Source: Aulosira sp. ZfuVER01
GTDB lineage: Bacteria; Cyanobacteriota; Cyanobacteriia; Cyanobacteriales; Nostocaceae
DNA: 64,000 nucleotides
Direction of reading: 5' to 3'
NCBI GenBank assembly: GCA_034530615.2
Contig: JAVRCV020000022.1
Coordinates: forward strand, 42,500-106,499
The position numbers and the translations under genes were made by a program. The notes under the pieces are model-generated. The model was given only the letters and a program-made list of their open reading frames with translations. It did not search any database and had not been told where the DNA came from. Below are positions 33,240-64,000 of this stretch, piece by piece. Numbering within the stretch: position 1 is the first letter of the stretch; the number at the start of each line of letters is the position of its first letter.

Positions 33240-34527
33240 ATGCCTCAGAATCCAGATAAAATTCAAGATCACGTAGAACTGTTCCACCAACCGGAATACC
33301 AACAATTATTCCAAAACAAGAAAGAATTTGAAAACGGTCACGACCCTGAAGAAGTAAAACGGGTTGCAGAATGGACAAAGAGTTGGGATTATCGTGAAAA
33401 GAACTTCGCTCGTGAAGCTTTGACCGTTAACCCTGCTAAAGGTTGCCAACCTTTGGGCGCTATGTTCGCTGCTGTTGGCTTTGAAGGTACTTTACCTTTC
33501 GTTCAAGGTTCTCAAGGTTGCGTTGCTTATTTCCGTACCCACTTAACCCGTCACTACAAAGAACCATTCTCTGGCGTTTCTTCTTCCATGACTGAAGACG
33601 CAGCGGTGTTCGGTGGTCTGCAAAACATGATTGATGGCTTGGCAAACTCTTACCAACTTTACAAGCCAAAAATGATCGCAGTCTGCACCACCTGTATGGC
33701 TGAGGTTATCGGTGATGACTTGGGTGCGTTTATCACCAACTCCAAGAACGCAGGTTCAGTTCCTCAAGATTTCCCAGTACCTTTTGCTCACACTCCTAGC
33801 TTTGTTGGTTCCCACATCACTGGCTACGACAACATGATGAAGGGAATTCTGACTACCTTAACCGCAGGTAAGCAGAAATCTGCTAGCAATGGCAAAATCA
33901 ACTTCATCTCTGGTTTTGACACCTACGTTGGCAACCTCCGGGAAGTAAAACGTATCGCTTCTCTGTTCGGCATTGACTACACCATCCTCTCTGATAACAG
34001 CGATTATCTGGATGCACCTAACACAGGTGAATTTGATATGTACCCAGGTGGTACAAAGCTGGAAGATGCAGCTGATGCTATTAATGCTAAAGCTACAGTT
34101 GTTATGCAAGCTCACTCTACTCCTAAGACCCGTGAGTACATCGCCAAAGAGTGGAAGCAAGATGTTGTAGTTTCCCGTCCCTGGGGTATCAAGGCTACCG
34201 ATGAGTTCTTGATGAAACTCAGCGAACTGAGTGGTAAACCAATTCCCAAAGAATTAGAAATCGAACGCGGTCGCGCAGTTGATGCGATGACTGACTCCCA
34301 TTCATGGGTTCACGGTAAGCGCTTCGCTATCTACGGCGACCCCGATTTAGTTTACAGCGTAGTTGGCTTCATGCTGGAAATGGGTGCTGAACCTGTACAT
34401 ATTGTGGTTCACAACTCCAATGAAGTGTTTGAAAAAGAACTTCAAGCATTGCTAGATTCTAGCCCCTTCGGTAAGGATGGAAAAATCTGGGCTGGTAAAG
34501 ACTTGTGGCACTTACGTTCTCTTTTGT
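33240..34527 (+). CDS. nifK: Nitrogenase MoFe beta chain, 5' segment (about 429 codons), interrupted
   Basis: [26 protein letters not shown]; homology stops after [11 protein letters not shown] where FTEPVD... is expected, then CLLSG*. Confidence 0.95.
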
Positions 34528-34681
34528 GTTTGCTATCAGGCTAATTAAAGGTTTTGACTTTGCAATGATTGATAGCGATCGCCTAATCTCTATACTTGGA
34601 TACTGCAATCCAAAATTTACAATTAGTATCAATTATAACATAACATTTAAAATTGCATAGAATACAGACTATGAACATTCG

Positions 34682-35227
34682 TTAGGCTGACGCACCATCT
34701 TTAAAGTTAGTCTGATTTTCAATTGATTCAAAAAACTGCGAAATTTGTTTAGTCGAGCGAATGTGATAAACACTTTTGATGCTTTGAGCCTGCTCGATGT
34801 ACTTGCGATATTTTGGGGTCAAATATTTATGACATAACCAAAGCACGCGGTAGCTACTAAGCGAACTCTTGAATATTGGAGTGTTTTCCGGCCAGCCTTG
34901 TGGCGGTTTAAAGTAACCTGTGATCAATCGTTTAGTTACCCACCACCCATGCATATATAGCGGGAGATCGACAAAAACCAGAGTATCCGCCTCTTCCAGT
35001 CGTGGCCAGAGGGTTTCCATGCAACCAAACCCGTCAATAATCCAGCGATCGCTAGCTAAAATTTGTTCATGGGCGCGCTTATAGTCTTCATGTGGAACCT
35101 CAGCACCCCCTGGTTGATATTGAATCTTGTCCAAGACATGAAGTGGCAAACCAGTGATTTGGGATAATTTCTGGCTGAGAGTTGATTTACCGCCTCCAGC
35201 ATTGCCAAACACCGCTACTTTTTTCAT
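34682..35227 (-). CDS. Adenylate-kinase-like / FlaR topology-modulation family P-loop protein
   Basis: GNAGGGKST, WIIDG, ADTLVFVDLP. Confidence 0.85.
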   Translation of the reverse strand: MKKVAVFGNAGGGKSTLSQKLSQITGLPLHVLDKIQYQPGGAEVPHEDYKRAHEQILASDRWIIDGFGCMETLWPRLEEADTLVFVDLPLYMHGWWVTKRLITGYFKPPQGWPENTPIFKSSLSSYRVLWLCHKYLTPKYRKYIEQAQSIKSVYHIRSTKQISQFFESIENQTNFKDGASA

Positions 35228-35468
35228 TGCCAGTCTCCTTTTAGCGCCATCCAGTCCTGAAATTTTTGCGTTTATCCGGAATAAAAACCATGCTGTTCCA
35301 AATTGTGTAATCCCATTCTCACAATCGCTTCCACTTATCCTCATCTATCCGGCAACTGCTATATTTCAGTTGATCATCTAGAGATTATGCCGCTCGTCTA
35401 AAATCTGCTTTTAGTAATCCATACAAATAATCATCAATACAGTAAATAAATGAATCTCTTATCTTTTG

Positions 35469-36680
35469 TTAGCCACCATCCCCGGATAAATTTAGCTCCC
35501 CATAAACATTGATATCAAATGTAAATTGAATATGGATGTATTTGTTGGGATAGCCTGTAGGCAAAGGTGCAAAGGGTGCAGATCGCTGTACGGCGCTGAG
35601 TGCTGCTCGATCGGTAATGCTAAATCCAGAAGTTTGTGCTAGCTGGAGATTGCTCAGTTGACCGGAACGGTTAATACTGAAGTTAAGCACCGTTCGCCGG
35701 GAAGACTGGCTCACTCCTGGAAGCCATTGCTGCTTCACACGTTGCTGTAATTCTTTTAAGTAAGAGGTAATATCTATATCTTGGCTTGTGGCATCAATAC
35801 CATCAGGAGCTTGGCGATCGCGGTTGGAATTAGGTAAGGCTGCCAAATTATCGCCACTAAAATTGCGACTAGATACACTCATAGTACCGCCCAGCAAACT
35901 AGCTGCACCTGTTTTAGAAGGCATTGCTGGAGGCTGAGTTCGTCCACTTAATCTAGTTCCTCGCTGGCCTAAATTCTGAGGATTAGGTACTGGTGATGTT
36001 GCAAGCGCTGTTTTTCGCGGTAGGGCTGGCGGTGGTGTAGTTGGCGCTACGGCAATTTTCTTCGGCTTGGGTGCTGGTGGTGTGGTTGCACTTGCGATCG
36101 CTGTTGGCTCAACTTTGGGCGCTGGTGGTGTAGTTGTTGCTAAGGCAATTTTCTTCGGCTTGGGTGCTGGTGGTATGGTTGCACTTGCGATCGCTGTTGG
36201 CTCAACTTTGGGCGCTGGTGGTGTAGTTGGTGGTATGGTTGCAGATGCTAACTTTGTTGTTTGCGGCTTAGGTTGTTGAGGAGATAGATTTGGTGATTCC
36301 GCTTTCTGTGGCCTTAGTTTTGGCTGGAATACCTCTGCTGGAGATAAGGCTTTTAAGTCAGAAGGACTCTTGCTAGAAGCTTTATGTGCATCTATTCGCG
36401 GTTTAACAGCAGAAACAGGCCTTTTTGGTAAAGCTTTACCACCCGCAATTGAATCTTTAGTAGCTCGAAATGAGGATTTTGGGGGTAGCTGCGTTTCATT
36501 GGGAGAAACTTCAACTATCTCAATTGGAATCTCTTGCTTAGGCTCAGGCATAAAAGCTTTGAGCCAATACTTGCTCCCCATCATTAAAGTAGAATGCAGA
36601 AGGATCGAAGTTACTAAACCTAGGAGCATCTGTGCTGGGCGCACTCTCCGATAGCGCTGAAATTCATGAGAAAAAGCCAT
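35469..36680 (-). CDS. TonB/TolA-like energy transducer
   Basis: N-terminal TM with SILLH, long Pro-rich linker with a 90-bp tandem duplication, C-terminal Y...LQQRVKQQW...SG....DRAAL.AV...APF..LP. Confidence 0.88.
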   Translation of the reverse strand: MAFSHEFQRYRRVRPAQMLLGLVTSILLHSTLMMGSKYWLKAFMPEPKQEIPIEIVEVSPNETQLPPKSSFRATKDSIAGGKALPKRPVSAVKPRIDAHKASSKSPSDLKALSPAEVFQPKLRPQKAESPNLSPQQPKPQTTKLASATIPPTTPPAPKVEPTAIASATIPPAPKPKKIALATTTPPAPKVEPTAIASATTPPAPKPKKIAVAPTTPPPALPRKTALATSPVPNPQNLGQRGTRLSGRTQPPAMPSKTGAASLLGGTMSVSSRNFSGDNLAALPNSNRDRQAPDGIDATSQDIDITSYLKELQQRVKQQWLPGVSQSSRRTVLNFSINRSGQLSNLQLAQTSGFSITDRAALSAVQRSAPFAPLPTGYPNKYIHIQFTFDINVYGELNLSGDGG

Positions 36681-62708: not shown

Positions 62709-62763
62709 CGAACCGCCAAGGAAAAAGAAAAGATAATTTATAGCTCTAAAAACGCAAAATTTT

Positions 62764-63567
62764 ATGTCAACCATTGTCAGCACGATTCAAGAAATTATCC
62801 GTCAGGAACTGCGATCGGTGCGGGTTGCTGAACTAGGATTGGTGGAGGCTGTGTTTTCCCATAGCGCTGCTAATGATAGTGACAACTACGGCTGTGATGT
62901 GCGTCTTAAAAATAGTGGTTTACTATTGCGGGGTGTGCCGATCGCAACTAGTCACATCGGTACAGCTGCGATCCCGAATGTTGGTGATTTGGTGCTGCTG
63001 ACTTTTTATAAGGGCGACATCAATCAGCCAATTTTGATTGGCAGGTTATACAACGAGCAAGACCGTCCACCCCTGAATAATTCCGATGAAGTCATCTTTC
63101 GCCTACCTTTAGCGGCAGATGACGAGAAGACTTTAAAGGCAGCTATTCGCAATATCAAAGATAATACTTCCCCCCGCGAAATTATCATTGAAATGCCTCC
63201 GAAAATAACTGTCCGCATTACCGATGGTACGGTGAGAGCAACTGCGGGTAAGACAGAGATGAAGTTAGATCAGCCTGATGGTAGTGGGGGTAAGGTAACT
63301 GTTGTTGCCGGTCGCACCAAAATCACGATGAATCAAGACGGTGATGTGACTATCGAAGCGGCAGGGGCGATGAGCCTCAAAGCTACCCGCGACCTGACTT
63401 TGGAAGGGCAAAATGTGAAAATCAAGGGCCAACTCAATACCGATATCGAAGCGGGTAGCCAAGCCACACTCAAAGGCAATATGGGAGCAACTGTGAATGG
63501 TGGACTTTCAGCTACTCTCCAAGGGGTAAATACCTCAATTAAAGGAATTACGTCGTTTTCACCATAA
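62764..63567 (+). CDS. Baseplate spike (gpV/gp5 OB-fold plus beta-helix)
   Basis: IPNVGDLVLL.F..GD.NQPILIG.LY followed by beta-repeats. Confidence 0.88.
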   Translation: MSTIVSTIQEIIRQELRSVRVAELGLVEAVFSHSAANDSDNYGCDVRLKNSGLLLRGVPIATSHIGTAAIPNVGDLVLLTFYKGDINQPILIGRLYNEQDRPPLNNSDEVIFRLPLAADDEKTLKAAIRNIKDNTSPREIIIEMPPKITVRITDGTVRATAGKTEMKLDQPDGSGGKVTVVAGRTKITMNQDGDVTIEAAGAMSLKATRDLTLEGQNVKIKGQLNTDIEAGSQATLKGNMGATVNGGLSATLQGVNTSIKGITSFSP

Positions 63568-63586
63568 GCAAGGGAGTTTTTAAGAT

Positions 63587-63919
63587 ATGCCTGGGCCTCC
63601 TGTTACTATTGGCGCTGCGGTAATTATTACTCCTGGCGCTACTGGCGCACCCGATTCGGGTGTGATTCTGACGATTTTGCCGCCGTTTATTACAGCCAAC
63701 GGCTTACCTTTGGCCACATCTGGCTCAATTTGCCAAATGATTAACTCGTTGACTGGGGTTCCTTATCCTTTGGTAATTGGGCCGCTAGCTAGTAGTGGTG
63801 TCACGGTGGGTGGTCGCTCTCTTGTGCGCATGGGCGATCGCATTCCAACTCCACCCGGTATCCTGACAATTTTAGGGCCACCAGCCGCGCCCTTTATTAA
63901 TGACCAATGGCCACCTTAG
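63587..63919 (+). CDS. PAAR-like spike tip protein
   Basis: ITANGLPLATSGS, S.GVTVGGRSLVRMGD; follows the spike gene. Confidence 0.7.
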   Translation: MPGPPVTIGAAVIITPGATGAPDSGVILTILPPFITANGLPLATSGSICQMINSLTGVPYPLVIGPLASSGVTVGGRSLVRMGDRIPTPPGILTILGPPAAPFINDQWPP

Positions 63920-64000
63920 GGGGTGTGGGGAGTGTGGGGAGAAATAACTGTCCGTTCGCTGATTTTGAGGTGGTAAGAGGAATTAAAAGCTTCAGGAAAA

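Follow-up and report, generated by a model that had tools for sequence, protein, structure and literature searches.

A nifK interruption element with an XisF-family recombinase in Aulosira sp. ZfuVER01, and the small open reading frame beside its recombinase gene

The nifK gene in the nif cluster of Aulosira sp. ZfuVER01 breaks off before its end, which raises the question of whether the gene is lost or is divided by an element whose removal would restore it. The window examined here, a stretch of 64,000 nucleotides (nt) from position 42500 to 106499 of contig C22, stops at the end of that contig, and the genome assembly to which it belongs (G000) comprises 8.03 Mb in 83 contigs, with a completeness of 99.99% and a GC content of 41.3%. 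In a preliminary description, made from the letters of the window, the break had been read as one end of a developmentally excised element carrying antagonism and defence systems. Comparison with the remainder of the assembly and with related genomes establishes that nifK is split by a real interruption element, which is now delimited, and this element belongs with high probability to the nifK-1277 class already known among heterocyst interruption elements, and would be excised in nitrogen-fixing cells by its own recombinase. The element itself offers little that is new, adding one well-resolved case to a described class.

The break in nifK and its 3' part

The 5' part of nifK consists of 428 codons at 33240-34523 of the window (+ strand), which amount to the N-terminal four fifths of NifK, and matches positions 1-434 of the NCBIfam model TIGR01286 with 748.6 bits (cut-off 427.3), together with positions 1-338 of 399 of the Pfam family Oxidored_nitro and with DUF3364. 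Its likely start is the ATG at 33240 (MPQNPDK...), the listed open reading frame (ORF) 33135-34544 opening upstream of this at a TTG at 33135. Homology to NifK stops at an 8-bp core, GTTCTCTT, at 34516-34523 on the + strand, which corresponds to nifK nt 1277-1284 and lies within 4 bp of the end near 34527 that had been proposed from the window. Past the core the frame adds six codons (...SLLCLLSG) before a stop at 34544, giving a truncated product of 434 amino acids (aa). The roughly 80 codons predicted to be missing from the window were recovered by running the nifK model against the whole genome, which located the 3' part of the gene, 83 codons in length, on contig C56 at 41187-41446 including the core, with positions 423-516 of TIGR01286 matched at C56:41165-41443. 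There a second copy of GTTCTCTT (C56:41187-41194, + strand) is followed directly by FTEPVDLLIGN... and a stop at 41446, the right break reading ...GCATTAGTTCTCTTCTGTTCACCGAGCCTGTAGAC.... Thus both the FTEPVD segment and the short direct repeat of the break sequence, which the preliminary description had expected to be found downstream together with a recombinase gene, are present.

When the 5' part in the window is joined in silico to C56:41195-41446 the result is an open NifK of 511 aa, residues 1-511 of which align with residues 5-516 of the intact NifK from the second nif cluster of a congener (G003) at 75% identity with a single gap, and neither half contains a stop or a frameshift. The 8-mer GTTCTCTT alone is not significant, with six copies in the window against 2.8 expected, and the weight of the core lies in its presence at both break points and in the restoration of the frame. 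Besides this split copy the nifK model search found no further full nifK complement in the 99.99%-complete genome; diazotrophy in this strain therefore needs nifK repair.

Since the two halves lie on different contigs, their relative orientation depends on how C22 and C56 are linked. The left part of the element occupies 34524-64000 of the window (29,477 bp) and runs to the contig end, from which it continues through one copy of an insertion sequence (IS) into C56:1-41194. A 6-bp target duplication, AAATAA, at 63942-63947 and an IS end at 63948-64000 (+ strand) mark the point at which the contig breaks; C22 ends and C56 starts within this multicopy IS, the interior of which is absent from the assembly. 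Ends of the IS were found at 13 contig ends, among them 63942-64000 of the window and C56:1-60, as six 'A' ends and seven 'B' ends with near-identical terminal inverted repeats, CTGT(C/G)CGTTCGCTGATTTT, and target duplications of 6 bp. Pairing by these 6 bp assigns to each of the six 'A' ends exactly one 'B' end and leaves one end over, the pairs being C22/C56 (AAATAA), C61/C24, C23/C7, C45/C34, C68/C66 and C32/C8. The IS is located within a contractile-injection cluster, between a 110-aa ORF that follows the spike gene and a gp25-like gene, and the order hub, spike, (110-aa ORF), gp25, J and large repeat protein is contiguous in each of the four related clusters whose flanks are long enough to show it, namely those of Heteroscytonema crispum, two Chloroflexi metagenome-assembled genomes and Longimicrobium. 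Because the unique pairing of the IS duplications and the conserved gene order of the injection system join C22 to C56, both parts of nifK lie on one strand, and the halves are in direct orientation on one replicon. The assembled parts of the element sum to 29,477 + 41,194 = 70,671 bp, without counting the remainder of one IS copy, and the earlier figure of more than 29 kb holds as a lower bound that was set by the contig end.

Direct orientation bears on whether nifK could be restored by inversion rather than by excision, as may be the case in two congeners in which the halves at the same junction are inverted. In G002 the 5' part is on the + strand (6650123-6651400) and the 3' part, 10,198 bp away, on the - strand (6661598-6661870), while in G217 the 5' part is on the - strand (1421827-1423110) and the 3' part, at a distance of 4,652 bp, on the + strand (1416897-1417175); in both, inversion between the sites would rebuild nifK and then nifE. 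Inversions that restore nif genes are documented and discussed by Uesaka et al. (2024; PMC11249958), and the location of the Aulosira halves on separate contigs would in itself allow such an arrangement. The IS target-duplication pairing nevertheless puts both parts on the same strand, and the injection-system genes run across the gap in the same contiguous order as in the four relatives, which makes restoration by inversion very improbable here and leaves excision as the preferred route.

Recombinase, recombination sites and the proposed excision

The recombinase gene anticipated near the break lies just inside the right end of the element at C56:39584-41134 on the - strand, 52 bp from the right core and divergent from the 3' part of nifK. 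It encodes a large serine recombinase of the XisF family with the domains Resolvase (PF00239), Recombinase (PF07508) and zinc ribbon (PF13408), and passes the NCBIfam equivalog model recomb_XisF with 541.5 bits against a cut-off of 375. The long form of the ORF (C56:39584-41146) would give 520 aa and the form beginning at a conserved Met (MDVLGYARVST, C56:41134) 516 aa. As five orthologues (L012, L015, L016, L018 and L028) would, in the long form, meet a stop at their third codon (MV*YMD..., position 3007-3009), the true start is placed at the downstream Met and the Aulosira protein probably has 516 aa rather than 520. The reading frame is free of stops, and Y10-T15, which includes the catalytic Ser (YARVST), is invariant in 29 orthologues.

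A scan of species-representative genomes yielded a set of 60 orthologous loci at 73-91% identity from many Nostocales genera; the locus of Aulosira itself is L011. In 55 of the 60 a nifK 3' fragment is present, always with the same first residue, and in 51 of those it lies some 40-70 bp upstream of the recombinase gene and divergent from it. Three of the five loci that have no nifK fragment have no upstream flank either, and two, L012 and L060, have flank but no fragment; the arrangement also differs in L061 and L062. At a criterion of at least 73% identity, an orthologue is present in 46 of the 200 other genomes of the family that together with G000 make up a family sample of 201.

The published survey of Hilton, Meeks and Zehr (2016; PMC4874684) describes 101 interruption elements of about 1 kb to nearly 1 Mb from 38 genomes, eight of which are in nifK as two variants. 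One variant is placed in its Table B at nifK 1277-1279; its core is GTTC, GTTCT or TCTTT, its serine recombinase lies in minus orientation at the element end, 51-62 bp from that end, and its sizes are 16.0, 28.8, 36.2, 64.8 and 84.7 kb with one further element of >20 kb. In Aulosira the insertion lies at nifK nt 1277, the left copy of the core agrees in sequence and position with the entry '1277, GTTC/GTTCT', an XisF-like serine recombinase gene opposite in orientation to nifK lies at the element end 52 bp from the repeat, and the two fragments rebuild one ORF when the DNA between the short direct repeats is removed. The element is assigned to the nifK-1277 class because its position, core, recombinase type and recombinase placement match those of the published variant. 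Four strains of the survey, PCC 7102, PCC 7103, UTEX 2349 and SC01, recur among the orthologous loci. The remark in the preliminary description that nifK elements are less common understates their frequency, given the eight among 101 elements of the survey and the recombinase orthologues in 46 of 200 genomes.

Experimental evidence comes from Calothrix sp. NIES-4101, in which an 8.6-kb nifK insert is reported to be excised on the basis of resequencing and PCR, with the recombinase CnXisK encoded at chr:4149921-4151471 (Uesaka et al., 2024; PMC11249958). The corresponding locus of our set (L022, AP018280.1:4149918-4151468) encodes a protein 84% identical to the Aulosira recombinase over 517 residues. 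As in Aulosira, nifK of Calothrix NIES-4101 is split at this same residue (I: 1-426, II: 425-511), and a serine recombinase gene adjoins its 3' fragment (Uesaka et al., 2024). The two elements differ in size, 8.6 kb against about 70.7 kb plus the IS, and wholly in cargo, and the 'recognition sequence' given for CnXisK differs from the GTTC-type core. From the likeness to a recombinase of demonstrated activity in another strain, excision of the Aulosira element is very likely. Accordingly, of the proposal that a developmentally excised element interrupts nifK, the type of element stands by virtue of the two halves, the core and the recombinase, while excision itself is something that we infer.

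The recombination sites were compared in an alignment of 55 right-end junctions with both Aulosira junctions. The right element-side arm is conserved as AT.TTACCTGATAG-(8)-CATTAG immediately before the core. The left element arm (34524-34560 of the window, + strand) reads TTGTGTTTGCTATCAGGCTAAT... and holds GCTATCAGG, an inverted copy of the right-arm motif (consensus TTACCTGATAG), and the same arm is found in the congener G003. By inspection, the dyad formed by the element arms, which is imperfect and would lie on the excised circle, is centred between nifK nt 1279 and 1280. A 2-bp crossover is usual for large serine recombinases. The minimal repeats published for this site, GTTC at 1277, TAG at 1278 and TCTTT at 1279, overlap only at nifK nt 1279-1280, and this overlap together with the arm dyad centre places the crossover most likely at the dinucleotide TC of those positions.

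In the arrangement of vegetative cells nifK is divided after nt 1284, and the element is flanked by a direct copy of GTTCTCTT on each side. We propose that at a late stage of heterocyst differentiation the recombinase would synapse the two junctions, each composed of one nifK arm and one element arm, the element arms carrying the inverted copies of the conserved motif, and would cut at the central dinucleotide. Rejoining would restore the 511-aa nifK upstream of nifE with the predicted junction ...CGTTCTCTTCTGTTCACC..., and the element would leave as a circle, which may persist in the terminal, non-dividing cell.

The fdxN element of Anabaena/Nostoc sp. PCC 7120, which is 55 kb long, follows the same logic of heterocyst-specific repair of a gene in the nif cluster, at a different target gene and site. 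Its recombinase XisF, for which the cofactors XisH and XisI are described (PMC11249958; PMC4874684), belongs to the same family as the present enzyme, a paralogue of which, at 51% identity, is encoded at 6468-8030 of the window. Large serine recombinases likewise remove big inserts from genes needed only in a terminally differentiated cell in the skin element/SpoIVCA and SPbeta/SprA-SprB systems of Bacillus and the skin-like element of Clostridioides difficile (PMC5499854; PMC4191935; PMC5025042). According to these sources the inserts are prophages or prophage-like, in another phylum and in target genes other than nifK, and a small element-encoded factor sets the direction and timing of their excision.

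Several observations weigh against excision of the Aulosira element. Neither a rejoined nifK nor a circle junction was seen in the sequencing runs, which were available as contigs only and are blind to rare variants: three of them, which contain the stretch and may be its source, span 31500-36080, all in the interrupted form and without a loose end at 34523, which makes them uninformative on excision, and a fourth covers conserved nif parts only. The right arm of the Aulosira site, ATATAACTTGATAAC, departs from AT.TTACCTGATAG at three positions of >90% consensus, which could weaken the recombination site, although the arm of the congener G003 departs too. In contrast to XisF of PCC 7120 with its cofactor XisH, the present element has no XisH homologue, none being found on C22 or C56 and all 15 in the genome lying on other contigs (XisI was not searched), so that XisH-type cofactors, if needed, would act in trans. 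Finally, with the IS interior unassembled the exact length of the element is uncertain, and a second rearrangement could conceivably lie inside the gap.

The silence of the contig-level runs and the three departures in the right arm would also fit a dead arrangement, either a nifK pseudogene or an artefact of assembly, in which nothing restores nifK. Such an outcome is highly improbable. The halves, free of stops and frameshifts, join to a full-length NifK, the recombinase gene is intact, the layout recurs in 55 of the 60 loci across many genera, the contigs of three runs span the left junction unchanged, and the genome holds no other nifK. An excisable element remains the preferred explanation of the split gene.

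Beside these results stands an observation on two of the orthologous loci. L012, from Tolypothrix sp. FACHB-123, and L060 each have 3 kb of upstream flank with no adjoining nifK 3' fragment, and their recombinase genes may be rearranged or relocated copies.

A small open reading frame convergent with the recombinase gene

Conservation extends about 240 bp past the recombinase stop codon, and in 35 of the 60 loci this stretch encodes a convergent ORF of 45-59 aa. In Aulosira the small ORF, of 56 aa, occupies C56:39341-39511 on the + strand (from 39323 in its long form; L011:1342-1512), tail to tail with the recombinase gene and after an insertion of 94 nt. Its product has the core MKRETLAELVARTVIEFEKRE followed by a basic tail rich in Q, K and R, and matches no Pfam family. 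The stop codon of the small ORF overlaps that of the recombinase gene; the explanation that its conservation merely reflects overlap with the recombinase gene was rejected, as only the stop codons overlap.

Across genera, this ORF of 45-60 aa is tightly linked to the recombinase gene. The 201 family genomes contain 40 strong matches: 31 directly adjoin a nifK-type recombinase gene at its 3' end (≤105 bp, convergent), eight are found 0.8-27 kb farther down the contig with their orientation relative to that gene unchanged, and one is without a recombinase on its contig; conversely, a strong small ORF is present on the same contig for 39 of 47 orthologous recombinases. The CnXisK gene of Calothrix NIES-4101 is followed by the same small convergent ORF as the Aulosira gene. 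Among the weak matches, 14 of 33 abut paralogous recombinases at 38-54% identity; one of these is on a genome (G294) whose coordinates agree with the published ones of Calothrix NIES-4101, next to the gene called CnXisF in that strain. An order-wide sample of 150 other genomes, of which only seven belong to the same family, contained no small ORF.

Whether the frame is translated was approached through its pattern of change. Diversity by codon position is highest at the third (0.382) and lower at the first (0.197) and second (0.121), in sequences picked by protein motif and hence biased, and synonymous changes exceed nonsynonymous ones only in the small-ORF frame and in the antisense frame that shares its wobble positions, the latter scoring nearly as well. 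A predicted complex of the recombinase with the small protein scored 0.00 against a mark of 0.32, the fold of the partner itself being uncertain, and speaks neither for nor against an association of the two. Around the recombinase gene and the small ORF, a promoter and terminator scan found four promoter-like sites against 5.8 expected, and an NtcA-type motif, of the form GTA-N8-TAC, occurred once against 0.99 expected; neither is above chance.

The small ORF is absent from the shared-gene table of PMC4874684, and no description of it surfaced in literature searches, which were not aimed at it. Its position and distribution make it a candidate directionality or timing factor, that is an excision cofactor, of XisF-family developmental recombinases, a role that we put forward tentatively and that is on present evidence rather doubtful. 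If it were true, a small protein would switch on heterocyst-specific excision, as SprB does for SprA in Bacillus. The small ORF offers a concrete candidate for what gives excision its direction and its cell specificity.

A weak paralogue of the small ORF was also seen at 2326-2448 of the window (+ strand), 4 kb past the 3' end of the gene at 6468-8030 that encodes the paralogous recombinase.

The interior of the element and the other interrupted nif genes

The Aulosira element and that of the congener G003 match in nothing but the junction arms, the recombinase gene and some 240 bp past the 3' end of this gene, and for this reason the interior of the element is regarded as exchangeable, as was also concluded by Hilton, Meeks and Zehr (2016). 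The distance between nifK halves that are split at the same junction in direct orientation varies accordingly, from 410,955 bp in G003 through 115,770 bp in G308, 33,645 bp in G343 and 29,990 bp in G299 to 5,814 bp in G170. One block of the Aulosira interior, C56:20003-36630 (16.6 kb, with acyl-acyl carrier protein (acyl-ACP), desaturase and methyltransferase genes and hybrid sensor kinases), is 88-93% identical to and colinear with G003:C1:2009914-2028095, a region that in its own genome is separated from the nifK element (3,656,975-4,067,930) by about 1.6 Mb. Judged from these comparisons the interior is a mosaic of strain-specific islands, the lanthipeptide and injection-system clusters, and of ordinary chromosome trapped by rearrangement, with no coherent mobile genome. 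The constant parts are the two junction arms, the recombinase gene and the small ORF, while the interior varies freely and can take in ordinary chromosome. Because the interior changes so freely among congeners, 'cargo' is used here for whatever lies between the sites and not for a payload brought by the element.

A quite different history would be that the 70 kb form one horizontally mobile island, a prophage or integrative element that brought antagonism and defence cargo and used nifK as a sheltering integration site. The large serine family to which the recombinase belongs includes phage integrases, and the lanthipeptide region (37.1% GC) and the injection system (44.6-45.9%) depart from the genome mean of 41.3%. 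In searches of three congeners at the DNA level, moreover, the injection-system region gave only short repeats and the lanthipeptide region only ABC-transporter genes at 66-72% identity outside the nifK elements, and the closest relatives of the injection system include Chloroflexi at 59%. Against this stand the synteny of C56:20003-36630 (41.1% GC over 20000-36630) with DNA outside the nifK element of G003, the restriction of what congeners share to the junction arms, the recombinase gene and the stretch beyond it, and element sizes of 5.8 to 411 kb in relatives; genes for replication, packaging or conjugation did not turn up in the Pfam scans. A single mobile island is thus very improbable. 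Nor does the notion of an essential gene that shelters cargo agree well with an interior that contains 16.6 kb of ordinary chromosome and shares almost nothing between congeners.

Next to the left junction, Pfam and NCBIfam identify a P-loop kinase-like protein and a TonB-like protein (34682-36680 of the window). They are followed by an array resembling clustered regularly interspaced short palindromic repeats (CRISPR) at 36921-37393 (+ strand), with seven copies of a 36-nt repeat at a start-to-start spacing of 71-76 nt, which was found by a repeat search and missed by Tandem Repeats Finder. The genome contains no second array with the same repeat (≤4 mismatches), and Rfam at gathering thresholds gave no match in 33000-64000 of the window. 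No Cas family was found among the ORFs of the element with Pfam, NCBIfam or PADLOC, the nearest cas1 genes (C22:29875-30621 and 34742-35611) lying outside it, some 44 kb upstream of the array, and PADLOC run on 31 cargo proteins returned generic ATPase, receiver or OmpA-type matches and no defence system. Of the CRISPR and defence content ascribed to this region, the repeat-spacer array is therefore real while the defence function finds no counterpart in these searches.

The cluster for a ribosomally synthesized and post-translationally modified peptide (RiPP) that had been noticed in the window is borne out by matches above curated cut-offs. It extends over 38980-47873 and comprises, from Pfam and NCBIfam, an ABC exporter (38980-40701, -), a prenyltransferase of the LynF/TruF/PatF type (40853-41746, -; 275 bits against 140), a cinnamycin-family precursor (43157-43438, +; cinnamycin_RiPP, 98.8 bits against 35), LanM (43691-46936, +; 592.2 bits against 304) and a Nif11-leader-like protein (46950-47873, +). 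With LanM and this precursor the cluster is classed, on its domain content, as a class II lanthipeptide cluster of the cinnamycin family. The adjacency of the precursor and LanM genes to the gene for the peptide prenyltransferase (40853-46936) is an observation in its own right and suggests that the product is a prenylated lanthipeptide.

The contractile-injection cluster is probably real too. Pfam and NCBIfam recognized sheath, gp25-like, baseplate J, hub and spike proteins in it, most of them with scores that do not exceed the Pfam cut-offs, and showed no AAA+ ATPase. Its first half occupies 49349-63919 of the window, with all of the following on the + strand: the sheath (50365-51504), a 167-aa ORF without a family match in the place of the tube gene (51517-52020), a protein of 1856 aa (55470-61040) between the tube-side genes and the hub, the hub (61716-62708), the spike (62764-63567) and the 110-aa ORF, again without a family match, in the place of the spike-tip gene (63587-63919). 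The second half, at C56:500-12249, contains the gp25-like gene (500-970), baseplate J (967-2571) and three large ORFs. In the 1856-aa protein, OmpA and peptidoglycan-binding domains are joined to a protein-arginine deiminase at the C-terminus (PAD_M and PAD, E 1e-99); the C-terminus shows 53% identity to its counterpart in the Heteroscytonema cluster. Beyond the injection system, Pfam identifies at C56:12327-37754 a VWA protein, response regulators, the acyl-ACP/desaturase/methyltransferase cluster, hybrid kinases and an acetyltransferase.

This cargo is undescribed in the portions of the survey of Hilton, Meeks and Zehr (2016) drawn on here, and the EF-G paralogue that occurs in two of the elements covered there did not turn up in Pfam scans of the present one. 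On excision, the lanthipeptide cluster, the injection system and the sensor-kinase and lipid block would be uncoupled from the heterocyst chromosome, amounting to cell-type-specific removal of genes.

The nifK element does not stand alone, and the statement that the other nif genes look intact was mistaken: nifD is split within the window by an element of 19,063 bp, nifE is split just outside it, and with nifK and probably fdxN several separate rearrangements of the nif cluster would be needed before nitrogenase is made. The nifD element is bounded by exact 11-bp repeats, GGATTACTCCG, at 13808-13818 and 32871-32881 of the window (13808-32881 in all), the 5' part of nifD lying at 12456-13838 and its tail running to 33015. 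The repeat is the sequence given for XisA (PMC11249958), and an ORF of 472 aa at 31334-32752 (- strand), for which Pfam found no family, is a putative xisA from its position and the GGATTACTCCG repeats alone. The break in nifE falls after nt ~557 at a CAGAACC core (C56:42023-44053, with the 3' part at C63:28243-29049), the position of the published variant nifE-558 (TGAACC). Directly inside this nifE element, and in the same orientation, lies a serine recombinase gene of 468 aa; the element measures at least ~62.7 kb. Some 40 kb separate nifB (C22:9171-10475) from nifS (8250 of the window), a stretch that contains the two cas1 genes named above and serine-recombinase genes at 85-1626 (+) and 6468-8030 (-) of the window, and that probably represents an additional element, or two, within or close to fdxN.

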